From: Candidatus Tepidifontimicrobium thermophilum
GTDB taxonomy: Bacteria; Sysuimicrobiota; Sysuimicrobiia; Sysuimicrobiales; Sysuimicrobiaceae
Length of the DNA: 64,000 nucleotides
Direction of reading: 5' to 3'
Assembly (NCBI GenBank): GCA_031459915.1
Contig: JAVKHO010000004.1
Coordinates: 96,001 to 160,000, forward strand
In this document: positions 39,637 through 53,295 of the stretch, piece by piece
Layout: every line of letters starts with the position of its first letter
Position numbering within the stretch: the first letter of the stretch is position 1
The notes under the pieces: model-generated
Databases searched by the model: none
Told to the model about the DNA's origin: nothing
The model's input: the letters and a program-made list of their open reading frames with translations, nothing else
Program-made: the position numbers and the translations under genes

Positions 39637-41277
39637 CTAGCCCTCCCGCTGTTGGCGGTACAGGGCTTCCACCTCTTCCAGGGTGCTGGCCTCCCGGGGC
39701 GTTTTGTCGGCGCGCACCCGGACGATGCGGGGAAAGCGCAGCGCGTAGCCGGAGTCGTGCCGGTCGCTACGGGTCACGGCGTCGAACGCCACCTCCAGCA
39801 CCACCTTCGGCTCCACCGCCTTGAAATGCCCGAAGTCCCGCACCGTGTGGCGGAGGAAGAACTGCGTGAGCTCCGCTATTTCCGCGTCCTGCAGGCCTGA
39901 GTACGCCTTGCCCACCACCCGCAGGCGGTCGCCGTCCCAGACGGCGAAGGTGTAATCGCTGAGCCACCCCGCCCGTTTGCCGTGGCCGTACTCCGCACCC
40001 ACCACGACCACGTCCAGGGTTGCCAGCGGCTCCTTCCACTTCAGCCACAGCCCGCCCCGCCGCCCCGGCCGGTAGGGTGCGTCCAGGCGTTTCACCACCA
40101 GGCCCTCGTTGCCACGTTCCCGGGCGTCGCGGAAGGCCTCCCATAAGGAGGCCACGTCCCGCACCGGTCGGGCGCTCGCCAGGCGGACCGGTCCGGAGAA
40201 CTCCATGGCCTGGAGGCGCTGGCGGCGTTCGGCCAGGGGCAAATCCATCAGATCCTGCTCCCCGAGCTTCAGCACGTCGAAGAGGAAGAGGGCCACGGGG
40301 ACCTGCTCCGCCACCTGGAAAGGATCCAGCCGGCGCAGGCGCTGCTGCAACCGTTGGAAGGGCGCCGGCCGCTGCCCGGCCCACGCCACCAGCTCGCCGT
40401 CCGCGATGTACGCGGGACCCAGTTGCAGCAGGGGCTGTCGGAGCTCTGGGAAGCTGTCCGTCACGTCGTCCAGGGTGCGCGAGTACAGAGTCACCCGGTC
40501 GCCCAGGCGGTGCACCTGCACGCGTACCCCGTCGTACTTGTCCTCCGCCAGCACCTCCTGTGGGCCGTCGTGGAAGGGCTCCGCGGGGTCCGCGAGGGTG
40601 CCAGCCAGCATGAAGCGGAACGGGCGGAAGTAACGGAGGGAGGCGGCCGCCAGCTCGCCCCGCCGTGCCTGACACGCCACCTCTCCCAGGTCGGAGGACA
40701 GCAGGTCCGCGCGGCGTACCGCTCCCGGCCGAGCGCCGAAGGCCTCGGCCACCGCCTCCTGCAGCAACCCTTCCTTGAGCCCGATCCGCAGGTCACCGGT
40801 GAGCACCCGGACCAGGAACTTGGCCTCCATAGGCTGCGCTTGCTCCAGCAGCGCCCGCAGGACCGCGGCCCGGAACTCTGCGGCTCCCTTCCCGCGCGCG
40901 GCCGCCGCGCGCCGCAGCTGCGCGTGGGCCCCCTCAAGGGTCAGGGGCTCGCGGAAGAGGGGTACCGCGCGGCGCCGGGCCACCAGCTCCGCGGCCACGT
41001 CTCCCAGGTCCCCCCACCGCAGGTACAGCTCCGAGACCTCCCGGTCGGTAGCCCCGGACAGCTCCTTCAGCACCTCCACGATGGTGGACCAGCCGATCTG
41101 CAGTTTGTCGGGATCTCCGGGTGGCAGCACGCGACCGGTCAGGTACGTGCACGCGACCCGCAACGCCTCTTCCGGGAGCCGGCGCAGGTAGGCCGCCAGC
41201 AGGGTGACCTTCTCGCGTTTCGACGGCGTACGGGACACCGCGTCCAGGGTGGCCGCGAACTCCGCCCAGCGCGCCAA
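39637..41277 (-). CDS. ATP-dependent DNA ligase
   Basis: EDKYDGVRVQ motif I, EGLVVK, WLKWK, LRFPR..RVR.DK; GGAGGT RBS before TTG 41277. Confidence 0.93.
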   Translation of the reverse strand: MARWAEFAATLDAVSRTPSKREKVTLLAAYLRRLPEEALRVACTYLTGRVLPPGDPDKLQIGWSTIVEVLKELSGATDREVSELYLRWGDLGDVAAELVARRRAVPLFREPLTLEGAHAQLRRAAAARGKGAAEFRAAVLRALLEQAQPMEAKFLVRVLTGDLRIGLKEGLLQEAVAEAFGARPGAVRRADLLSSDLGEVACQARRGELAAASLRYFRPFRFMLAGTLADPAEPFHDGPQEVLAEDKYDGVRVQVHRLGDRVTLYSRTLDDVTDSFPELRQPLLQLGPAYIADGELVAWAGQRPAPFQRLQQRLRRLDPFQVAEQVPVALFLFDVLKLGEQDLMDLPLAERRQRLQAMEFSGPVRLASARPVRDVASLWEAFRDARERGNEGLVVKRLDAPYRPGRRGGLWLKWKEPLATLDVVVVGAEYGHGKRAGWLSDYTFAVWDGDRLRVVGKAYSGLQDAEIAELTQFFLRHTVRDFGHFKAVEPKVVLEVAFDAVTRSDRHDSGYALRFPRIVRVRADKTPREASTLEEVEALYRQQREG

Positions 41278-41364
41278 CGCCCACCTCCTGCGGCGCCTCC
41301 AGACTAGACGGACCGTCCCGCGGATGCAACGCAGTCCTTTGTGGAATTTCGCCCGGTCGGGGGA

Positions 41365-41393
41365 TTGACAGCCCGGTTGGCCGGCGCTATTGT
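41365..41393 (+). promoter_or_regulatory. Sigma70-type promoter driving the riboswitch transcript
   Basis: TTGACA-N17-TATTGT. Confidence 0.8.
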
Positions 41394-41415
41394 GCCGGTA
41401 CAAAACTGAACCGCG

Positions 41416-41507
41416 CACCGTTCGAAAGGGCAAACCCGCGGTAACGCGGGGACGCAAAGCCAACGGGGCCTGCGAGGAGCAGGTCGGCCGGGTTGCCGAA
41501 AACGGTG
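41416..41507 (+). ncRNA. c-di-GMP-I (GEMM) riboswitch aptamer
   Basis: GGGCAAAC-CCGCG-GTAA-CGCGG-GGACGCAAAGCC...GCCGGGTTGCCGAA core closed by a CACCGTT/AACGGTG stem. Confidence 0.9.
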
Positions 41508-41519
41508 GTTTCGTTTTTG

Positions 41520-41557
41520 GGCCCGTTCGCGCGGTGCGCACGGGCCTTCTGTTTGTT
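41520..41557 (+). terminator. Putative intrinsic terminator (riboswitch expression platform)
   Basis: GGCCCGT...ACGGGCC stem followed by TTCTGTTTGTT. Confidence 0.65.
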
Positions 41558-41567
41558 CTGCAGAGGG

Positions 41568-41636
41568 CACCGGGCAGGAAGCGCGCGCGTGCGGACCCTA
41601 CCCCCCGAGGTCCGCGCGGCGCGCTTCCACCCGGTG
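41568..41636 (+). ncRNA. Long imperfect hairpin with C-rich loop (candidate sRNA element)
   Basis: CACCGGG/CCCGGTG, GGAAGCGCGC/GCGCGCTTCC, CGTGCGGACC/GGTCCGCGCG; loop CTACCCCCCGA. Confidence 0.5.
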
Positions 41637-41685
41637 TGTGTCCGTCGGTATCGTCCGAGCCTACAACGCGGACTCTCCTCGCGGG

Positions 41686-42513
41686 TCAGCGCGTTCCAGA
41701 CGCCACCTGCCCGTCACGGGTCAGGGCACGGTCCCGGGCCCTGGCCGGCCCGTGCCCGAGGCCGTGCACGTACCGGCGGAACGCTCCCTCGACGGCCTCC
41801 GAGAGCACCAACCGACTCAACAGCTCGAAGTCCGCCCCCCAGGCCTCCGCGCGCTCCCGAGCAGCTTCCAGCAGGGAAGCGAAAACGCCGGGCAGCGCGT
41901 CCGCCATCTGGGCCGCGGCCTCCGCGGTGCGGTGGTCGGTCCGCACCAGCAACGCCCCCGTACCGCGGTAGAGCTCCGCCACCGCGTCCACGGCCCAGCG
42001 CTGGTCTCCGCCCAACAGCACCCACCGGGGCCGCAGGAAGTCCCGCACCGCCTGGCCCCGGCGGAGCAGCAGGGGGTTGGAGACCACGCCTGCAGGAAAG
42101 CCTTCGCCCCGACGCTCCCGCAGCCGGTCCTGCAGCCACTGGGCAGTCCCCACGGGTACGGGGGCCTGCAAGGCCAGCACGCTGCCCGGCGCCAGTCTAG
42201 CCACGAGGCTGTCCGCCCACGGCTGCCGCCGCGGGTCCGTGGCCACGCACCACAGCGCCGCCTCTAGAGGCGGATCCGCCACCAGCTCTAGCCACCCGCA
42301 GCCCAGGGCTTCGCGGAACAAGGGCTCCAACCCGGGTTCGAAGAACGGCAGGCGCCCCTGGCGTAGCGCCGCAAGCCGGGCGCGGTCAGGCTCCACCGCC
42401 AGCACGGGACGGCTGGGCCCCGCGAGACAGCTGGCCACCACCAAGCCGGATGCCTCCACCCCCACCACCACGACTCGGGTCTCGGCCACCTCGCACCTCC
42501 GCGGCAACCTCAA
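41686..42513 (-). CDS. Truncated, degenerate UDP-glucose/GDP-mannose dehydrogenase-like protein
   Basis: PFFEPGL, PVPVGT, SNPLLLRRGQAVRDF..P; canonical catalytic motifs and C-terminal domain missing. Confidence 0.65.
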   Translation of the reverse strand: MRLPRRCEVAETRVVVVGVEASGLVVASCLAGPSRPVLAVEPDRARLAALRQGRLPFFEPGLEPLFREALGCGWLELVADPPLEAALWCVATDPRRQPWADSLVARLAPGSVLALQAPVPVGTAQWLQDRLRERRGEGFPAGVVSNPLLLRRGQAVRDFLRPRWVLLGGDQRWAVDAVAELYRGTGALLVRTDHRTAEAAAQMADALPGVFASLLEAARERAEAWGADFELLSRLVLSEAVEGAFRRYVHGLGHGPARARDRALTRDGQVASGTR

Positions 42514-42532
42514 GCAAGTTCCGTGCCGCGGT

Positions 42533-43672
42533 TCAAAACGAGTCCCACACCACCTCCCCCGCCACGACCGTGAGGGCTGCCCGACCCTCCACCAGCACGC
42601 AAAGGTCCGCGCGCAGCCCCGGTCGCAGCAGCCCGCGATCCTCGAGGCGTAGGACCCGCGCGGGAGTGGTGGTGGCCATGCGGACGGCGTCCCGCAGGGG
42701 CACGCCCCACCGGGTCGCGTTGTCTACCGCTTCGTCCATCCGCAGGACGGTGCCCGCAAGGGTCCCGTCCGCCAAACGTGGAGCCTCACCGGGCAGGACC
42801 GTCGCCAGGGCTCCGCCCAGGCGGTACCGACCCGGCGCAGCCCCCGCAGCGGCCATGGCGTCGGTCACGAGCGCCATCCGTTCCGATCCCAGCAGCCGGT
42901 AGGCCAGGCGGAAGGCCGCCGGGTGCACGTGCACCCCGTCTGCCACCAACCCGCACACCCAGGCGCCGTCCTCCAGCGCGGCACCTACGACTCCCGGTTC
43001 CCGGTGGTGCAACCCCCGCATGGCGTTGAAGAGGTGGGTGACCATGCCGGCACCGGCCTCGAAGGCCTCCCGGGCCTGCTGGTAGGTGGCGTCCGAGTGG
43101 CCCACCGAGGCGACGACCCCCGCGCCCGCAAGCCACCGCACCAGCTCCAGCCCGCCCGGCTGTTCCGGAGCCACGGTGACGGCGCGCACAAGACCGCCGA
43201 GGTCAGCCACCAGCCGCCTGACGCTCGGATCGCCCGGAGGCACGATCCACCGCGGATCGTGCGCCCCGGCCCGCTTCGGGCTGATGGCCGGTCCCTCCAG
43301 GTGCAGCCCCACCGGCTGGGCACCGCCTCCCGCGCCCACGGCCACCACCTGCGCGGCTGCCCGGACAACCTCCGGGGGCGCGGTGATCAACGTGGGCAGG
43401 AAGCTGGTAGTGCCCGTGGACGCCAGGTACCGCCGTGCCGCGGCGAACTGTTCGGGGGTGCAGGAAAGGAAGTCCGCGCCGGCGGCCCCGTTCACCTGCA
43501 GGTCCACAAAGCCAGGGACCAACACCCCGTGCGGGAACTCCCGGTCGGCACGGCGTGGTGTGCCCTCCCTGACCTCTGCGATGAGCCCGTCCTCCACCAC
43601 CACGTAGCCCGGTACTAGGTCCCGGTCCGGGGCCACCACCACGCCCGCCGCGAGAACGAGGCGGCTGATCAC
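42533..43672 (-). CDS. nagA: N-acetylglucosamine-6-phosphate deacetylase
   Basis: PGFVDLQVNG, HLEGP, GHSDA, THLFNAM, DGVHV, LVTDAM. Confidence 0.94.
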   Translation of the reverse strand: MISRLVLAAGVVVAPDRDLVPGYVVVEDGLIAEVREGTPRRADREFPHGVLVPGFVDLQVNGAAGADFLSCTPEQFAAARRYLASTGTTSFLPTLITAPPEVVRAAAQVVAVGAGGGAQPVGLHLEGPAISPKRAGAHDPRWIVPPGDPSVRRLVADLGGLVRAVTVAPEQPGGLELVRWLAGAGVVASVGHSDATYQQAREAFEAGAGMVTHLFNAMRGLHHREPGVVGAALEDGAWVCGLVADGVHVHPAAFRLAYRLLGSERMALVTDAMAAAGAAPGRYRLGGALATVLPGEAPRLADGTLAGTVLRMDEAVDNATRWGVPLRDAVRMATTTPARVLRLEDRGLLRPGLRADLCVLVEGRAALTVVAGEVVWDSF

Positions 43673-44794: not shown

Positions 44795-47236
44795 TCAGGC
44801 GCCTTCCGTCACGTACACCACCCGCAGGATCTCCTCGATGGTGGTGACCCCTTCCAGCACCTTACGGATCCCGTCGTCCCGCATGGTCCGGAAGCCTTCC
44901 GAGCGGGCCACCTCCCGGATCTCGTTGGCGGAGGCGCGCCGGACCACCCGCTCCCGGATCCGGTCGCTCACCACCAGCAGCTCGTAGACCCCGGTCCGGC
45001 CCTTGTAGCCCGTCTGGCGACAGAAGTCGCAGCCGGCACCCCGGTACAGCACCAAGTCCTTCTCCTCCGCCAGCTCCTCCGACAGGCGCCGCACCGCCTC
45101 GCGGGGCGGTCGGTACGCCTCCTTGCACTTCGGGCAGATGGTCCGAGCGAGCCGCTGGGCCAGGACCCCAATCACCGACGACGTGATGAGGAACGGCTCG
45201 ATGCCCATGTCCACCAGGCGGGTGAAGGCGCTGGGGGCGTCGTTGGTGTGCAGGGTGCTGAGCACCAGGTGGCCTGTGAGGGCCGCCTGCACCGCGATCT
45301 CCGCCGTCTCCCGGTCGCGGATCTCGCCCACCATGATCACGTCCGGGTCCTGCCGGAGGATACTCCGCAGCCCCGTGGCGAAGGTGAGCCCCGCCTTGGG
45401 GTTCACCTGGACCTGGTTGATGCGCGGGAGCTGGTACTCGACGGGGTCCTCCACTGTAATGATGTTCTTGTCGAGGGTGTTGATCTTGCTCAGCGTGGCG
45501 TACAGGGTCGTGGTCTTCCCGCTGCCGGTGGGTCCGGTCACCAGGATCATCCCGTAGGGCTTGCTGGCCAGCTCCTCCCACTGGGCCTGGACGTCGCTGG
45601 CCATGCCGAGCCGGTTCAGGCTGATGAGGGCGTTGGACTGGTCGAGGATGCGCATCACCACCTTCTCCCCGAACATGGTGGGGAGGGTGGAGACGCGGAG
45701 GTCGATGTCCCGGCCGTCCACCTTCAGGTGGATCCGGCCGTCCTGAGGACGGCGCCGCTCCGCGATGTCCAGGTTCGCCACGATCTTGATGCGGGACACC
45801 AGGGCCGCCTTGAGGTTCTTCGGCGGCGACATGACGTCGTGGAGCACCCCGTCGATCCGGTAGCGGACGTGCAGCCCGTTGCGGTGGGGCTCGATGTGGA
45901 TGTCCGAAGCCCCCTCCCGGATGGCCTGGTCCAGGATCACGTTGACCAGCTTCACCACCGGGGCCTCGTCCACCATCTCCCGGAGTCGGTCGATGCTGAC
46001 CTCCTCCTCGGCCGCCGCCTCCTCCTCCGTGACCACGGCCTGGTCGAAGATGGAGCCCACGTGGTAGTACTTGTTGATCGCCTGCATCAGCTCGTCCTCG
46101 GTGGTGATGCGGGCCTCCACGTCCATCCCGGTGACGAGCCGCACGTCGTCCAAGGCCAGCAGGTTCAGGGGATCCACCAGGGCCACCAGGAGGCGGTCCC
46201 CGTTCCGGCCGAAGGCCAGCACCTTGTGACGCGAGGCGATGTGCTGGGGTACCAGCCGTACCACCTCCGGGTCCACGGGGGTGTTGCTCAGGCTCACGTA
46301 CGGGTAGCCCCACTGTACCCCGATGGCCTTCGCCAGGTCCTCCTCCGCGATCAGCCCCATGCGGACCAGGATGCGGCCCAGCCGCTCGCCGGTGCGGGCC
46401 TGGATCTCCAGGGCCTGCTGCAGCTGCGCTTCGTTCAGCAGCCCCATGCGGACCAGGATGCCGCCCAGGGCTTCCCGCCGGACCAGGGTGGGCGCACCGG
46501 GACGCGCGGCGGCTCGGGGTCCGGAAGGAGGTGCTGGGGGAGTTGAAGCCGCCGGGTCCGGCACCGGCAGGGAGGCCGCAGAAGGCGGCGCGCCTGGCTC
46601 GTGCTGCACGGGCCGCTCGAACGTCTCGCGGGCCGGCACTTCGGCGGAACTCCGTTGGGCGGTCTCGGCCTGGCCCTGGGCTAGGTGCTCGAGTGCGGCG
46701 GCAGCCTCGAAGGGCGCCTGCGCCGCCTCCGGCCTCGGGGGGACCTCCCCTACGATCGGAGCGGCTTCCCCGTGCTGCTCCTCAGCCGGTTCGGGCGCCG
46801 GCCCCGGCTCTCCCGTCGCTGGGGACGGTTGGGCGTCCAGCCCACGGGCCGGTGCCGGGTGGCCGTCCGCCCTCGCTTCCAGGGCTTCGGCGCGCTCCAG
46901 GACGCTGACTGCCTCCTGGGAAAGCCCCAGCCTCTCGTACACCTCACCCAGCGCCAGGAGGACTACCGCAGCTTCCTTCATGAAGCCCCCGGACTGGTAC
47001 AGGTCCGCGAGATCCAGATAGTGGATGGGCTCCTCCGGCGCCAGCTCGATGAGCTTTTTGTACTCCGCGATGGCCTCCTGCAGCCGGCCCGCGTGGGCGT
47101 GCCGGATGGCCTGGTGGTACCGCCACGCGCACTCCAGGGTCTGGTTGCCCGCAGGGATCCCCAAAGATGCCTTGTACTCCCGGAGGGCAGCCAGCTCGGC
47201 CTCCGCCTGCTCGGCCTTCGTCCCGCTTGCCTTCAT
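44795..47236 (-). CDS. pilB: Type IV pilus/T2SS assembly ATPase with N-terminal TPR, Pro/Ala linker and MshEN domain
   Basis: ASDIHIEP, DIAERRRPQDG, GPTGSGKTT, RQDPDVIMVGEIRD, GHLVLSTLH, two CxxC; tandem MshEN motifs 46313-46471. Confidence 0.92.
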   Translation of the reverse strand: MKASGTKAEQAEAELAALREYKASLGIPAGNQTLECAWRYHQAIRHAHAGRLQEAIAEYKKLIELAPEEPIHYLDLADLYQSGGFMKEAAVVLLALGEVYERLGLSQEAVSVLERAEALEARADGHPAPARGLDAQPSPATGEPGPAPEPAEEQHGEAAPIVGEVPPRPEAAQAPFEAAAALEHLAQGQAETAQRSSAEVPARETFERPVQHEPGAPPSAASLPVPDPAASTPPAPPSGPRAAARPGAPTLVRREALGGILVRMGLLNEAQLQQALEIQARTGERLGRILVRMGLIAEEDLAKAIGVQWGYPYVSLSNTPVDPEVVRLVPQHIASRHKVLAFGRNGDRLLVALVDPLNLLALDDVRLVTGMDVEARITTEDELMQAINKYYHVGSIFDQAVVTEEEAAAEEEVSIDRLREMVDEAPVVKLVNVILDQAIREGASDIHIEPHRNGLHVRYRIDGVLHDVMSPPKNLKAALVSRIKIVANLDIAERRRPQDGRIHLKVDGRDIDLRVSTLPTMFGEKVVMRILDQSNALISLNRLGMASDVQAQWEELASKPYGMILVTGPTGSGKTTTLYATLSKINTLDKNIITVEDPVEYQLPRINQVQVNPKAGLTFATGLRSILRQDPDVIMVGEIRDRETAEIAVQAALTGHLVLSTLHTNDAPSAFTRLVDMGIEPFLITSSVIGVLAQRLARTICPKCKEAYRPPREAVRRLSEELAEEKDLVLYRGAGCDFCRQTGYKGRTGVYELLVVSDRIRERVVRRASANEIREVARSEGFRTMRDDGIRKVLEGVTTIEEILRVVYVTEGA

Positions 47237-47475
47237 GGTCCTCTCCCGGCTCCTCGCCACCGGTGCCCCCCGGCCACCGCCGTCCTTGCTCCCAGTCTAC
47301 GCGAAGAGCAAGTATTGTACCCCGCCGCCAGCCGCCCCAGACCGCGGGCCCGGGGTTGACCGGAAAGTAGCACAGGTCCCCGGGGCCCGCAAGCCAACCC
47401 GATAGCCTGGAACGAAACTTGCTCCAACAGCCCCCTGAAGGACCTCACCGGGGCAGGAGGGAAGTGTTGACACCC

Positions 47476-49032
47476 ATGGACGCACGGTACGAGCTGGACG
47501 TGGCGGTCGTGGCGGGCCTGATGGCCGACCGACACCTGATCAGCCTGGCCCTCAACGAGGGGTTCGCGCCAGAGATGCTGGACAACCCCGTGGCCCAGCG
47601 CCTGAGCAAGGTGGTGCTGGAACTGGCCATGGCCCGCGCGGCTCCCCTGGACCAAGTGAGCGTCCGTCACGAGGTGCACGAGCGGGGACTGCTGACCCCC
47701 GAGATGGAGCGATTGCTGCAGGCGGTGCGGATGACCCGTCCGCCCTCCGCTAGCCAGATGGCCAGCTACCTGGACGCGCTCAAGGCGCGGGAGAGCCGCC
47801 GCAGGCTGGAGGCGGTCCAGCGCCGGATCCAGGACTTCCTCCGTCAGGGGGAACGCGCGGGCTCCCGGGACCTGGTCCGGTTCGTGGGCGAGGTGGTGGG
47901 GGAGCTGTTCGAGGTCCAGAAGCGGCGCCTGCGCCAGCGCCTGGTCCCCGTCGGGGACCTGGTGGCCGAGCTCATCGAGAACGTCCAGAATCCCTCCGCG
48001 GGAGGCCTGCTGGGGTACTCCATCTCGCCCTTCGATCGGCTGAACCGGGTGCTCTCAGGGCTCCGGCCGGGCTTCTACTACGGGCTGGCCGGGGCTCCCC
48101 GGCGGGGCAAGACCAACCTGGCGTTGCAGCTGGCCAGCTACGTGGCCCGCAATCACCGCATCCCCGTCCTCTTCTACTCGTGGGAGCAGACGGCAAAGGT
48201 GTTGGCTGCACGGCTTCTGGCCAAGGAGATGCTGGTGAGCCCGGCGGACATCCTGGCGGGGACCGTGGACCGTTCCCCGCTCAGCCTGTCGAAGCTGCGG
48301 GCCGCGGAGGAAGAGGTGTACCGGTTCGCGCCCTACCTGTACCTGGTGGAGGCCGGGCGGAGGGACACCCTGGACCGGATCAAGGCCCACGCCTACAACG
48401 TGATGCAGGAGCACGACACCGACCGGATCCTCGTCTGCCTGGACTACCTGCAGAAGATCCCCCTGGACGAGCCCATCGCGGACGACAAGGCCCGTACGGA
48501 CCTGATCTCCTCACAGCTGGCGGAACTCAGCCTGGAGCTGCGGGCCCCGATTCTGGCTATCTCGCCCCTGGACAAGGAGGGCTGCCGGCTGGACGAGCGG
48601 CCTGCGGAGGACGACGGGGAGTCGGAGCTGTACGAGCGGCCCACCATGCACCACAGCGTGGGCTCAGGCGACCTGGAGTACGACCTGGACGTGGCCATGG
48701 TGCTGGTCAAGGACTGGAAGGCGACCCGGGACCTGCGGGATTACCTGGAGTCCAAGGCCCGGCAGGAGGGGCTGGACCCCGAAGAACTCCCCAGGATCGA
48801 CATCCTCAACCTGTTCATCGACAAGAACCGGGACGCCCCGGAAGCAGAGTCCAACATCGTGCAGTTCGCCTTCTTCATCACCCTGAACAAGTTCGTGGAG
48901 CTGGGCTACAAGCACGAGAAGGAGTACCGGGGCGACTTCCGGGGCTTCTCGAAGGTGGTGGAGATCTACAGCCAGCTCAAGGAGGCCGGGTTGCTGCACG
49001 CACCTCCGGAAGCCCTGGTGGCGGGCAGCTAG
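47476..49032 (+). CDS. Divergent DnaB-like (SF4/RecA-fold) helicase
   Basis: FDRLNRVLSGL, GAPRRGKT, FYSWEQ, LDYLQKI, ISPL, SGDLEYDLD, KNRD; N-terminal helical domain. Confidence 0.8.
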   Translation: MDARYELDVAVVAGLMADRHLISLALNEGFAPEMLDNPVAQRLSKVVLELAMARAAPLDQVSVRHEVHERGLLTPEMERLLQAVRMTRPPSASQMASYLDALKARESRRRLEAVQRRIQDFLRQGERAGSRDLVRFVGEVVGELFEVQKRRLRQRLVPVGDLVAELIENVQNPSAGGLLGYSISPFDRLNRVLSGLRPGFYYGLAGAPRRGKTNLALQLASYVARNHRIPVLFYSWEQTAKVLAARLLAKEMLVSPADILAGTVDRSPLSLSKLRAAEEEVYRFAPYLYLVEAGRRDTLDRIKAHAYNVMQEHDTDRILVCLDYLQKIPLDEPIADDKARTDLISSQLAELSLELRAPILAISPLDKEGCRLDERPAEDDGESELYERPTMHHSVGSGDLEYDLDVAMVLVKDWKATRDLRDYLESKARQEGLDPEELPRIDILNLFIDKNRDAPEAESNIVQFAFFITLNKFVELGYKHEKEYRGDFRGFSKVVEIYSQLKEAGLLHAPPEALVAGS

Positions 49033-49056
49033 ACCGTGTACGGGGAGGTCTGAGGG

Positions 49057-50205
49057 ATGAACATCGAGCAGCTGCTGAAGGAAGTGGTGGACCGCCAGGG
49101 GTCCGACCTGCACCTCACGGCAGGGGTCCCCCCTATCATGCGGGTGTGGGGCAAGCTGACCCCCCTTGCGGGCTACCCGGTGCTGACCCCGGAGGACACC
49201 TACCAGTTGGCCTACAGCATGCTCAACACCCTGCAGAAGCAGAAGTTCGAGAAGAACTGGGAGCTGGACCTGTCCTACGGGGTGCCCGGGCTCGGGCGGT
49301 TCCGGGTGAACGTGTACCGGCAGCGGGGGGCGGTGGGGGTGGCCATCCGGGTGATCCCCCACGAGGTCCCGCGCTTGGAGGACCTGAACCTCCCCAGTGT
49401 CCTGGTGGAACTCACCCGCAAGCCCCGGGGGTTGATCCTGGTCACGGGGCCCACGGGCCAGGGCAAGTCCACCACCCTGGCGGCCATGATCAACCAGATC
49501 AACGAAGAGCGCAGCTGCCACATCGTCACCATCGAGGACCCCATCGAGTACCTGCACGAGCACAAGCGCAGCGTGATCAACCAGCGGGAGCTGGGCTTCG
49601 ACACCCAGTCCTTTCCCAACGCCCTGCGGGCCGCCCTCCGGGAGGACCCGGACGTGGTCCTCATCGGCGAGATGCGGGACCTGGAGACCATCGCGGCGGC
49701 GCTCACCATCGCGGAGACCGGCCACCTGGTGTTCGCCACCCTGCACACCGCCAACGCCGCCCAGTCCGTGGACCGCATCATCGACGTGTTCCCGCCCCAC
49801 CAGCAGCAGCAGGTGCGGGTGCAGCTGAGCTCGGTGCTGGAGGCCGTCATCAGCCAGATCCTCCTGCCCAACCAGCTGTTCCTACGGCGCTTCGGAAGCC
49901 AGGAGAGCTACGCGGCGGCCCGCCGGGCCGGCGCGGTGGCCACCCTGCGGCGGACGTGGCCCACCCTGGAGGAGATCGGCCGGGTGCCCGCGGTGGAGGT
50001 CATGATCGCCACCCCCGCCATCCGCAACCTCATCCGGGAGGGGAAGACCCACCAGATCGAGTCCGCCATCCAGACGGGTGCGGAGTGGGGGATGCAGACC
50101 ATGGACCAGTCCCTGCGGGACCTGTACCAGCGGGGCCTGATCTCCTTCGAGGACGCCATCGGGAAGGCCATTCATCCGGACGAGCTCCGCAAGATGATCG
50201 CCTGA
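49057..50205 (+). CDS. pilT: Type IV pilus retraction ATPase
   Basis: GSDLHL, GPTGQGKSTT, ALREDPDV, AIRNLIRE, GMQTMD. Confidence 0.96.
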   Translation: MNIEQLLKEVVDRQGSDLHLTAGVPPIMRVWGKLTPLAGYPVLTPEDTYQLAYSMLNTLQKQKFEKNWELDLSYGVPGLGRFRVNVYRQRGAVGVAIRVIPHEVPRLEDLNLPSVLVELTRKPRGLILVTGPTGQGKSTTLAAMINQINEERSCHIVTIEDPIEYLHEHKRSVINQRELGFDTQSFPNALRAALREDPDVVLIGEMRDLETIAAALTIAETGHLVFATLHTANAAQSVDRIIDVFPPHQQQQVRVQLSSVLEAVISQILLPNQLFLRRFGSQESYAAARRAGAVATLRRTWPTLEEIGRVPAVEVMIATPAIRNLIREGKTHQIESAIQTGAEWGMQTMDQSLRDLYQRGLISFEDAIGKAIHPDELRKMIA

Positions 50206-50222
50206 AACGGAGGAGGGTAGTT

Positions 50223-51440
50223 ATGGCGGTCTACCAGTACACCGCCCGCGACCAGATGGGTCGGGTGGTGACGGGAACCCTGGAGGCGGAGAACGACGCC
50301 CAGGTGGCGGAGAAGCTCCACCAGATGGGCTTCTTCATCACCGCCATCGAGCGGGCCAAGGCCGGCCCCGGGGAGGCCCGCAGCTTCTTCGACCTGTTCC
50401 GCGGGATCTCCCTGCGGGACCTCGCCCTCATGAGCCGGCAGTTCTCCACCATGGTGAACTCCGGCCTGACCCTGGTGCGGTCTTTGACCATCCTGGAACA
50501 GCAGACCACCAGCCACCGCCTGCGGGAGGTCCTGAGCAAGGTACGGGCGGACGTGGAGCAGGGCCGCACCCTGGCGGAGGCGCTGTCCAAGCACCCGCAG
50601 GCCTTCAGCTCCCTGTACGTGAACATGGTCCGGGCAGGGGAGGCGGGCGGAGTCCTGGACGACGTCCTGCAGCGCCTAGCGACCTTCCTGGAGAAGGAGT
50701 TCGCCCTGCGGCAGAAGATCAAGTCCGCCATGGTGTACCCTGTCATCCTGACCCTGGCGGCCACGGGAGCCTTGCTCTTTATGACCATGGTCATCATCCC
50801 GCAGTTCGTGGTCTTCTTCCAGGAGCTGAACGTGGGCGACCTGCCCGTGCCCACCAAGATCGTCATGGCAATTAGCTACGTCCTCCGGACCTTCTGGTAC
50901 GTGTGGATCCCGGGGATCGCGGTGGCGGTGTGGGGCTTCCTGCGGTGGCTGCGGACGCCGGTGGGCAAGGCGTGGTGGGACCGGACGAAGCTCCACCTCC
51001 CGGTGTTCGGGTCCGTGATCCAGAAGACCGTCCTGGCGCGGTTCGCCCGAACCCTCGGCACCCTGCTGGGCGCGGGCGTGCCGTTGCTGCAGTCCTTCGA
51101 CGTGACCAGCAAGGCCGTGGACAACGTGGTGGTGGAGGAGGCCATCCGGAAGGTCCGCGCCAGCATCCGGGAAGGCGAGAGCATCGCCCTCCCCCTGTCC
51201 CAGGTGGAGCTGTTCCCTCCCATGGTGGTGCAGATGGTGAAGGTGGGGGAGGAGGCCGGTAACCTGGACGAGATGCTGGTGAAGGTGGCGGACTTCTACG
51301 ACACGGAGGTGGAAGCCGCGGTGGCCGCCCTGGCCAGCACCCTGGAGCCCGCCATGATCGTGTTCATGGGCCTGGTGGTGGGGGCCATGGTTGTCTCCCT
51401 GTACCTGCCCATCTTCCAGCTGGCCGCGAAGGCGGGATAG
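50223..51440 (+). CDS. pilC: Type IV pilus platform protein (PilC/GspF)
   Basis: YVNMVRAGEAGGVL, AMVYP, FPPMVVQMVKVGEE.G.L, LEP, LPIF; GGAGG RBS. Confidence 0.95.
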   Translation: MAVYQYTARDQMGRVVTGTLEAENDAQVAEKLHQMGFFITAIERAKAGPGEARSFFDLFRGISLRDLALMSRQFSTMVNSGLTLVRSLTILEQQTTSHRLREVLSKVRADVEQGRTLAEALSKHPQAFSSLYVNMVRAGEAGGVLDDVLQRLATFLEKEFALRQKIKSAMVYPVILTLAATGALLFMTMVIIPQFVVFFQELNVGDLPVPTKIVMAISYVLRTFWYVWIPGIAVAVWGFLRWLRTPVGKAWWDRTKLHLPVFGSVIQKTVLARFARTLGTLLGAGVPLLQSFDVTSKAVDNVVVEEAIRKVRASIREGESIALPLSQVELFPPMVVQMVKVGEEAGNLDEMLVKVADFYDTEVEAAVAALASTLEPAMIVFMGLVVGAMVVSLYLPIFQLAAKAG

Positions 51441-53295
51441 ACAGACCCTTCGGCAGCACCACCAGAGCGTCGCTCACGGGACGCTCGCCTCCCTCGTCCG
51501 AGGGACGGTTCAGCACCGCTCCGCCCACCACCAGGGTCGTGGAGCCACCGCCGTCCAGGTTGACGGCGTCCACGGCCCCCAGGCTCACCAGCTCCCGGGC
51601 CAGCTCGGACAGGGTCATGCCCAAGCTGTGCTCCGGCCACCGGCCGTCCACCACCACCAACAGCAGGCTGCCGTCCGCGGCCACGCCCGCGGCGGTACGC
51701 GGGTGCCGGCGGTCCCGGAAACCCTCCGGGAAGCCCTCGTGGGACGGGCCGGCCACGCCTCCGGAGGCCAGACGCGGCCCGCCGCACACCACGTGGCGGA
51801 CGTTGTGCCACCGTGGGTCGCCCGAGGCGGGCCGAAGGGAAAGGGTCACCCGCACGGGATCCCCGGGGCGGAGGACCTCCAGGGCGGCGGCCACGGAGCC
51901 GCCGGCGGAAAGCACGGAGCCGTCGGAGGGGATCGGGCTGCTGCCGCCGGATCGGACTTCGCGGACGATTCCCCCTACCACCAAGACTTCGACTCCAGAA
52001 GGGTCGGCAGGGGTGGTACCCCCGTAGCGAGGCGTGAACAGGATCACCTCGCCCGCTCTGCGCCTGCGGTTCAACCCGGAAAGCCGCAGCGCGCCAGCCG
52101 GGGTCAGCACCTCGCCGTACCAGTCCAGGGCGTCCACCAGTGCGACTCCGTCCCCCAACCCCAGGCACGACCGTCCCGGTGTAGGCTCGCTGACCCACTC
52201 CCCATCAATGACGAGCCCCCCCAGGGGGTCGCCGTCGGGAGCGAAGAACCCGCCGTTCGTGGCCGCCACCGCGCCCGCGCGCCTGGCCATGTCCGAAGTC
52301 CGCTCCCGTCCCGGGACCCGATCCCGGGCCAGCACCGGGCGCACCTCGAACCTCCGGGGATCCACCCGCAAGGCTGCGACCCACTGAGGCACGGAAAGTC
52401 GCTCGAGGTCCCGCACCGTGGACAGCACCCACGTGGGCAGCCCCTCCATCTTCAGACGCTGTGCCAGCTCCCCCGCTTCCTGACGCGTAGCGAAGGAGCC
52501 TACCCGGACTTTGTACAGCCCGTCCACCTCGTCCACGAACGCCACGAGCCCAGCCGACCGCATGCGGTCCGCCAGCCGCCGGGCGTTGTCGGGGTTCGCG
52601 AAGGCCCCTACCTGCACCCGCCAGACGGGCAGCGTGCGCAGCGCGCCCCGCTTTTCAACCACCACCGACACCCCCGGCGCCAGCTCCTGCTCGTACCTCA
52701 GCCGCACGCCCTCTTCCACCGCCCTCAGGTACGCCCACAGGAGGCTTGCGGCCTCCGCACGGGTGATGAAGCGGTCACGCTGCGGGGCACCCCAGGGCTC
52801 CTGCAGCAGGGGCGGTTCGGTCCGGGCGGCCAGGAGAAGGGGGGCACTGGAGGGGTCGGCATTGGTCCGGACGGCCAGCCAGCTGGCCTCCCACGTGTAG
52901 CCCAGAGCCCGCACCACCCAGTCCACCGCCTCAGCCCGTCGCAGGGGCTCGTGCGGCCGGAACCGGCTCTCCTCCGGCAGCAGCCCGTAGCGGGCAGCGG
53001 CTTCCACGAAGGCTGCCTCCGGGCTGGAAACCTGTACGTCGGGGTAGCTGGGCCGGTCCGGACGGACCGCAGGCAACCCTCGCGCGGTCACCAGCCACCG
53101 GACGAACCGCGCGCGCGTCAGGGTGGACTCGGGTCGGAACAGGCCGTCCGGGTCGGTGTCGACCACCCGGCGCTCCAAGAGCACCTGGATCCGCGACGCG
53201 GCCCAGCTGCCGGCCAGGTCAGGGGGCCCGGACTGTGCCCACGCCCAGGACAGCGCCGTCCCGGTAACCCACAGGACAACCCCAAGACGCCGCAC
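51364..53295 (-). CDS. Exported SLH + SPOR + phosphodiester glycosidase (NAGPA-like) protein
   Basis: FRP...TRA SLH repeats, VQVGAF/VRVGSF SPOR, NGGFF, HPRTAAG, NLDGGGST. Confidence 0.85.
   Translation of the reverse strand: MRRLGVVLWVTGTALSWAWAQSGPPDLAGSWAASRIQVLLERRVVDTDPDGLFRPESTLTRARFVRWLVTARGLPAVRPDRPSYPDVQVSSPEAAFVEAAARYGLLPEESRFRPHEPLRRAEAVDWVVRALGYTWEASWLAVRTNADPSSAPLLLAARTEPPLLQEPWGAPQRDRFITRAEAASLLWAYLRAVEEGVRLRYEQELAPGVSVVVEKRGALRTLPVWRVQVGAFANPDNARRLADRMRSAGLVAFVDEVDGLYKVRVGSFATRQEAGELAQRLKMEGLPTWVLSTVRDLERLSVPQWVAALRVDPRRFEVRPVLARDRVPGRERTSDMARRAGAVAATNGGFFAPDGDPLGGLVIDGEWVSEPTPGRSCLGLGDGVALVDALDWYGEVLTPAGALRLSGLNRRRRAGEVILFTPRYGGTTPADPSGVEVLVVGGIVREVRSGGSSPIPSDGSVLSAGGSVAAALEVLRPGDPVRVTLSLRPASGDPRWHNVRHVVCGGPRLASGGVAGPSHEGFPEGFRDRRHPRTAAGVAADGSLLLVVVDGRWPEHSLGMTLSELARELVSLGAVDAVNLDGGGSTTLVVGGAVLNRPSDEGGERPVSDALVVLPKGLSIPPSRPAGRWAGTGRQPWPPPPGP

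Follow-up and report, generated by a model that had tools for sequence, protein, structure and literature searches.

A gene-less c-di-GMP-I riboswitch predicted to gate a conserved non-coding hairpin in Candidatus Tepidifontimicrobium thermophilum

Results

Locus, promoter and flanking genes

The window, that is, the whole stretch of DNA analysed, comprises 64,000 nucleotides of the Candidatus Tepidifontimicrobium thermophilum genome (G000, the source genome; G000:C28:96001-160000), and coordinates are window positions unless a contig is named. A promoter and riboswitch on the plus strand lie between two minus-strand genes: an ATP-dependent DNA ligase gene (lig, 39637-41277), the divergent upstream neighbour, and a short nucleotide-sugar-dehydrogenase-like (ugd-like) gene (41686-42489), the convergent neighbour. 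The convergent run past the switch continues from the ugd-like gene through nagA and adh to a gene for a PilB/GspE ATPase with an MshEN c-di-GMP-binding motif (44795-47236, minus strand), whose linkage to the switch is not conserved. The Ugd-like protein has 267 aa, and its profile match is below curated cut-offs and covers positions 2-243 of 413 in the model. Its gene diverges more quickly than those around it (54% identity in G003), and the genome G007 and the metagenome locus L076 have lost it.

The promoter (41365-41393, plus strand; promoter scan and alignment) is of the sigma-70 type, with a -35 hexamer TTGACA at 41365-41370, a 17-nt spacer and a -10 hexamer TATTGT at 41388-41393. It is the single promoter-like site in a 2.3-kb scan (40500-42800), against a mean of 0.0 in shuffled sequences, and in the alignment of seven genomes TTGACA and TA..T are invariant and the spacer is variable. 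From these motifs, transcription is predicted to start near 41400. On a coding model trained on the genome, three plus-strand ORFs and a GTG frame score -39 to -188, compared with +99 for the Ugd-like gene. The sequence-only reading of this DNA had named the same promoter, placed both flanking genes on the minus strand and taken the plus-strand ORFs downstream for antisense shadows, and it is borne out on all three points.

Aptamer and predicted switching

Covariance models place a c-di-GMP-I (GEMM-I) aptamer at 41420-41501 on the plus strand, which scores 67.8 bits against RF01051 (gathering cut-off 35). Within the Rfam clan CL00126, the best-scoring model was that of the c-di-GMP-I-UAU variant, RF03168 (66.1 bits against 65.9; E 4.4e-12). 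Membership of this variant was rejected: its name presumably refers to U at positions 20 and 92, and where the model has its two U, the present element has G41429 and C41496. By what we take to be the Vc2 numbering, these two bases are the equivalents of G20 and C92, and 41456 is the equivalent of A47. Both G41429 and C41496 are invariant in 16 aligned copies. The genome encodes 11 GGDEF domains, seven of which have the canonical Asp. In an account of the ligand roles of aptamer positions, G20 and C92 are c-di-GMP contacts (PMC6140456). By sequence, the element is a member of RF01051 of the c-di-GMP rather than the cGAMP type, and ligand binding is predicted. The earlier description of a well-formed GEMM aptamer is thus upheld, as is its expectation, from a G at the G20 equivalent, of c-di-GMP rather than 3',3'-cGAMP.

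Folding and alignment define a 5' switching strand (41413-41422, plus strand), in which an antiterminator strand (41413-41420) overlaps the 5' strand of P1 (41416-41422). It has two alternative partners, the 3' strand of P1 (41501-41507) or an antiterminator 3' strand (41532-41539) held within an intrinsic terminator. The terminator (41520-41554, plus strand) consists of a hairpin at 41520-41546 (folding z -2.85) and a weak U-rich tail, TTCTGTTT; it was missed by the promoter/terminator scanner, which gave a weaker stem at 41490-41511 instead. A competing stem (41496-41504 with 41512-41520, plus strand; folding) would tie up C92 together with the 3' strand of P1 in the ligand-free state. This stem and the terminator had both been read from the sequence on the plus strand, and both are confirmed.

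In unconstrained folds the antiterminator is favoured in 13 of the 16 copies and the terminator in three (G005, L068 and L066). With P1 and P2 forced, the terminator formed in all 16, and 13/16 copies are computed to switch on forcing P1. Because the free fold favours the antiterminator and forced P1 gives the terminator, the element is predicted to be a terminator-type OFF switch. Across the 16 copies the antiterminator helix is paired in 100% of cells and the competing stem in all cells, neither with a compensatory change, and the terminator has two pairs with changes on both sides.

A conserved hairpin beyond the terminator

In the alignment of genus relatives, conservation extends past the terminator to about 41640. 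Folding and alignment define a 69-nt read-through hairpin in this region (41568-41636, plus strand), with a 7-bp outer stem, a 20-bp core with one bulge (41577-41628) and an 11-nt C-rich loop (41598-41608, CTACCCCCCGA) that contains a run of six C (C6). The fold has an energy of -59.4 kcal/mol (z -6.35), the minus strand being nearly as good at -57.1, and there is no U-tract at its 3' side. No Rfam family matched the hairpin in a search to E 10.

The 16 copies (alignment A4) come from seven GTDB genomes and nine metagenome loci, some of the same species. Invariant columns number 47/53 in the hairpin core, 77/93 in the aptamer, 27/48 in the platform and 6/32 in the linker. Over the same locus, identity to G000 at four-fold sites of lig, ugd and nagA is 0.37-0.58 in distant relatives and 0.72-0.79 in G001 and G002. 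Only two substitutions occur in the core stem, one at the bulged base (L076) and one from G-C to G-U in four copies; one U-G pair is invariant, the outer stem has an A-U/G-C swap, and loop variants are confined to bases 5' of the C6 run. These few changes fit an RNA made from the plus strand. Since 19 of the 20 core pairs never vary in the 16 copies, covariation speaks neither for nor against the structure. It is invariance, not covariation, that marks the core, and this may reflect recognition by a protein or structure-specific recognition.

The hairpin model (R1) had a match in seven of the eight genomes of the genus, whereas under strict filters the remaining 86 genomes of the order gave nothing better than two matches at E 0.04-0.05. 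The exact 21-base core occurs in six records among GTDB species genomes. A pattern for the 5' part of the aptamer found 13 metagenome loci, of which nine contain the aptamer and, in 9/9 cases, the hairpin; the remaining four (L065, L067, L072 and L074) have no aptamer and were dropped as chance matches. In the genome G007 (96% complete), the 3' end of the aptamer, the terminator, the hairpin and the ugd-like gene have all been lost. It also has no flagellin or fliD/fliS match, and keeps MshEN and 10 GGDEF matches. Co-loss with flagella was considered and rejected: G007, the single case, lacks both, whereas the hairpin is retained in G002 and G005 (83% complete), in which no flagellin was found.

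No conserved sense ORF follows the switch in any of the 16 copies, which answers the question, raised by the sequence-only reading, of whether relatives carry a gene there. Conservation, and weakly the reads described below, identify the read-through hairpin as a non-coding plus-strand RNA under strong selection, and it is very probable that the switch gates this selected hairpin. The earlier claim of a switch with its own promoter and terminator and no sense gene therefore stands, except that it had missed the output, the conserved hairpin at 41568-41636. Its suggestion of a c-di-GMP-gated non-coding RNA is likewise supported.

Metatranscriptome reads

Seven RNA runs were mapped, with 3-5% of each raw run sampled. 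Run X5 gave 10 reads, eight of them at at least 99% identity, all within 41412-41511 and none elsewhere in 1.5 kb. Four of the 10 carry a back-joint from 41511 to 41412, delimiting a 100-nt aptamer-only RNA piece (41412-41511, plus strand). The joint may mean that the aptamer RNA was circular or ligated, but a library artefact or a tandem copy of the stretch in some other strain would produce it too. Cleavage into short products has been described for terminated class I switches (PMC3649979). In these 3-5% samples, X5 had no hairpin reads and X6 no reads at all at the locus.

In X7, aptamer-like reads, mostly from other organisms, fall 91:3 in one orientation, and this bias calibrates the strand. 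Four partly aligned reads (possibly two pairs) lie on about 41564-41606 in the aptamer orientation; lig and ugd reads (depth about 1) have the opposite orientation, and no plus-strand reads of X7 extend past 41619. A 380-nt contig of X3, from another species, starts at 41412 and spans the hairpin. Two contigs, which carry no strand, were found in other runs: a 1165-nt contig of X1 from 41264, at a depth of 29.6 versus 2.2 in the ligase gene, and a 256-nt contig of X2 (41630-41885; depth 61.6), which starts from the hairpin's 3' foot. Most X7 aptamer reads and the X1 and X2 aptamer contigs belong to other organisms and were left out of the expression count.

Proposed mechanism and target search

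The reading that we prefer, and to which we give an even chance, is that of a gene-less c-di-GMP-I OFF switch whose hairpin output acts in trans, with the C-rich loop likely pairing to G-rich stretches in other RNAs. Transcription would begin near 41400, the promoter being visible in the sequence and the start deduced from it. At high c-di-GMP, folding and known aptamer chemistry suggest that P1 would take the 5' strand and the terminator would form, giving an RNA of ~155 nt that ends near 41554. At low c-di-GMP, the 5' strand is predicted to pair into the terminator, and a read-through RNA of at least 237 nt would be made. On the evidence of conservation and, weakly, of reads, the read-through part would be the plus-strand non-coding hairpin under selection. 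By analogy with 6C RNA, its rigid stem may then hold out the C6 loop as a seed that pairs with G-rich ribosome-binding regions and needs no chaperone, and low c-di-GMP would therefore dampen the translation of unlinked mRNAs.

Hfq was not found in any of the five genomes tested, and G-rich ribosome sites are common in this genome. A duplex ranking over 2561 start regions gave no outlier, and the count of G6 before ATG in G000 showed no excess (73 versus 85 in the reversed control). The full loop complement lies near the start of eight of 2583 genes, as called by an ad hoc caller. Conservation tests covered fliS, yajC and rng, and seven of the eight full-complement genes lie outside this set. 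All three candidates were rejected: the fliS site is kept in 4/5 genomes but is coding-constrained and lost in G001, the site in the yajC leader occurs in only one of six genomes, and that in rng in only two of six. The best loop complement genome-wide, a 13-mer at C2:100205, lies antisense to a 23S rRNA intron region and was attributed to chance. The 23S rRNA gene there (G000:C2:98000-100300) is apparently interrupted by introns, which carry two ORFs (98253-98798 and 99607-100191) that by eye resemble homing endonucleases. A weak profile match at C30:83906-83944 (E 0.045) has the hairpin's own sense and lies, by eye, in an apparent coding frame, so that it is no target. The search thus yielded no target and all three candidates fell away, so that we infer the pairing step from 6C RNA.

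Alternative explanations

Among the alternatives, the one with most in its favour, though we think it unlikely, is that the RNA binds a protein: at low c-di-GMP the stem and loop would titrate an RNA-binding regulator, in the manner of EutX/Rli55 with EutV. The stem sequence itself is invariant, not merely paired, the genome encodes three ANTAR proteins and CsrA, and no conserved pairing target emerged for the loop, fliS, yajC and rng having failed. However, an ANTAR element is a dual short-loop structure and a CsrA target a GGA loop, whereas the present element is one long hairpin, has a loop of 11 nt and lacks a conserved GGA loop. Additionally, the P2 stem of the aptamer is just as invariant, and the invariance of the hairpin may therefore merely reflect slow stem evolution.

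An improbable alternative is cis-antisense action, in which read-through would extend into the convergent ugd-like gene from its 3' end; reaching pilB would be its least likely form. The absence of a U-tract behind the hairpin would permit this, the X1 and X2 contigs (depths 29.6 and 61.6) cover the stretch past the hairpin well, and some convergent gene comes next in all GTDB carriers. However, those contigs are strandless, and in X7 the plus-strand reads end by 41619 and the ugd reads run in the opposite orientation. L076 has no ugd-like gene, nagA being the direct neighbour, and yet retains the hairpin; moreover, a conserved loop would be superfluous for antisense action. The sequence-only reading had gone further and proposed read-through antisense into the pilB-adh-nagA-ugd run as a possible second control of pili. 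The 3' end of pilB is 3.1 kb from the hairpin, and pilB follows adh in G000, G001 and G004 but not in G003, and in G006 it lies mid-contig on another contig; the whole element is retained in both of the latter genomes. Antisense control of pili is therefore not supported. The output that is conserved is the hairpin rather than any complementarity to neighbours; antisense RNA may nevertheless reach a short way over the 3' end of the ugd-like gene, since the X1 and X2 contigs carry no strand.

Two observations concern pilus genes in their own right. The block containing pilB (44795-53295) is flanked in G000 by adh and a pxpB-like gene and is absent from that position in G003 and G007, and thus moves as a unit. 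The second class I switch of the genome (C8:6816-6894, within C8:600-6894; L002/L089) is an ordinary one with a terminator, and precedes a minor-pilin cluster with PilM/N/O-like genes.

Rather improbable, too, is a standalone store or sponge for c-di-GMP, in which the hairpin would only protect the 3' end. A precedent for a gene-less c-di-GMP switch RNA is the Bdellovibrio merRNA (PMC3627812), and the X5 reads (10/10) all fall on the aptamer. However, an OFF platform would yield the hairpin only without ligand, and a 3' clamp would have no need of a C6 loop that never varies; the terminator of the element is far more variable. The X5 depth (about 9) is also low and not merRNA-like.

It is very doubtful that the element is the relic leader of a lost gene, with the hairpin a former cis element. 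In its favour are a similar unit in G009, which stands ahead of two further aptamers and a sense ORF, and the losses in G007. Near-invariance across relatives with saturated synonymous sites largely refutes this explanation, and the absence of a sense gene in 16/16 copies and the presence of the hairpin with the aptamer in 9/9 metagenome loci also count against it. The switch is no relic, given that relatives all lack a sense gene at this place and that selection on the unit is strong; it may have originated as a leader, but it is under selection now. Finally, a small peptide from the GTG inside the hairpin is scarcely credible. GGAAG does lie 7 nt upstream of the GTG in 7/7 genomes, and small proteins are under c-di-GMP switches in C. 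difficile (PMC13724677), but this precedent does not apply here. The frame varies from 16 to 203 aa across seven genomes, with unrelated tails, and 1-nt loop insertions shift it in three of the 16 copies (L066, L071 and L077); there is, besides, no synonymous variation, a coding score of -182 and a putative ribosome site paired in the stem.

Parallel units in the order

Class I switches occur in 93 of the 94 genomes of the order, about 530 in all. Most of the 85 others examined stand before a sense ORF, and only one, in the sister-genus genome G009 (L012/L117, G009:C16:148054-148568), has a comparable long C-loop hairpin. It shows the same promoter-aptamer-terminator layout, followed by a stem that differs in sequence and carries a C7 loop, to which the hairpin model R1 has no match. 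Three class I aptamers stand there in tandem before one secreted-looking ORF, and a run of seven G lies about 100 nt past the C7 hairpin. As this hairpin is upstream of two aptamers, the sense ORF and the G7 run, it may act in cis there. By eye, from N-termini, class I switches also often precede sigma-factor-like or PilT-like ORFs (L146, L158, L173, L058, L152 and L156).

In the family f5 (L178-L199), a gene-less switch with a terminator is followed, about 210 nt behind the aptamer start, by a conserved RNA (for example G035:C1:648675-648895, minus strand, with its aptamer at 648951-649038). This RNA is a 110-150-nt multibranch structure with an invariant 9-nt loop and C-rich stretches, and is found in 22 of the 34 family genomes at E <1e-7. 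Its exact core is present in 18 of 22 loci, with an aptamer upstream in 18/18 (17 without the unpublished G060). G060 was left out of the f5 alignments, and G023, also unpublished, contributes one ordinary switch (L019). Four of 32 predicted pairs show covariation, the downstream genes vary, and Rfam gave no match to the f5 RNA besides the aptamers. Homology with the present hairpin was not detected, as profile searches in both directions gave nothing below E 0.45. The f5 RNA is more deeply conserved than the present element. In the genus g6 (L043, L047, L051 and L055, from G090, G093, G089 and G014), a switch without a clear sense gene, with a convergent gene after it, leads into an invariant anti-Shine-Dalgarno-like C-rich stretch and then a terminator with a C-rich loop.

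By sequence, parallel units of a gene-less switch plus an RNA are also present in other families of the order. We tentatively propose, as a possibility with less going for it than against it, that the order routes c-di-GMP through riboswitch-gated, Hfq-independent sRNAs with a C-rich seed against unlinked mRNAs, in at least three lineage versions (the hairpin, the f5 multibranch RNA and the g6 anti-Shine-Dalgarno-like form). Should this hold, RNA alone would carry the signal of a second messenger to many mRNAs. At 240 nt, the element is amenable to testing in vitro or in a laboratory host.

Comparison with known systems

To our knowledge, c-di-GMP riboswitches are known as cis switches of the gene behind them. 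Riboswitch-gated sRNAs are already known for B12 and SAM, aspocR being an RNA controlled by a B12 switch, and a gene-less c-di-GMP RNA is known from Bdellovibrio; a preprint is said to deal with an sRNA upstream of Vc2. No c-di-GMP switch with a dedicated conserved RNA module as its output was found in the openly accessible literature searched. Compared with the c-di-GMP-I switches of RF01051 (Vc2; C. difficile Cdi1), the present element has the same aptamer with G20 and C92 and a predicted terminator-type OFF platform, but no coding gene stands behind it and the regulated product is the conserved hairpin. In C. difficile, 11 of 12 class I switches are OFF and terminator-type (PMC3649979).

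In the EutX/Rli55 sRNAs, a B12 riboswitch terminates with ligand and the non-coding read-through is the effector, as described in PMC7602753 and listed in PMC13501541. The predicted logic here is the same, but the ligand is c-di-GMP and the effector is one long C-loop hairpin rather than an ANTAR element. The antisense RNA at Clostridium ubiG, mentioned in PMC3627812, is driven by a riboswitch. That switch, too, is convergent on an operon, but here the set of convergent genes varies and the internal hairpin is fixed. The merRNA of Bdellovibrio bacteriovorus is described as a gene-less, lineage-restricted c-di-GMP riboswitch RNA of 445 nt, massively expressed and proposed to store the ligand (PMC3627812). 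The present element is likewise gene-less and lineage-restricted, but has a conserved terminator/antiterminator and a downstream module that is conserved as well.

The element probably does not belong with merRNA, and by test it is not a 6C RNA, whose Rfam model was absent among 16 matches at E up to 10. 6C RNA has two C-rich hairpins. The 6C RNA of Actinobacteria pairs with mRNAs through its C-rich loops and requires no chaperones (PMC6486639). The present hairpin shares with it a six-C loop on a GC-rich stem, in genomes where Hfq was not found, and differs in having one C-loop hairpin, not two, fused behind a riboswitch.
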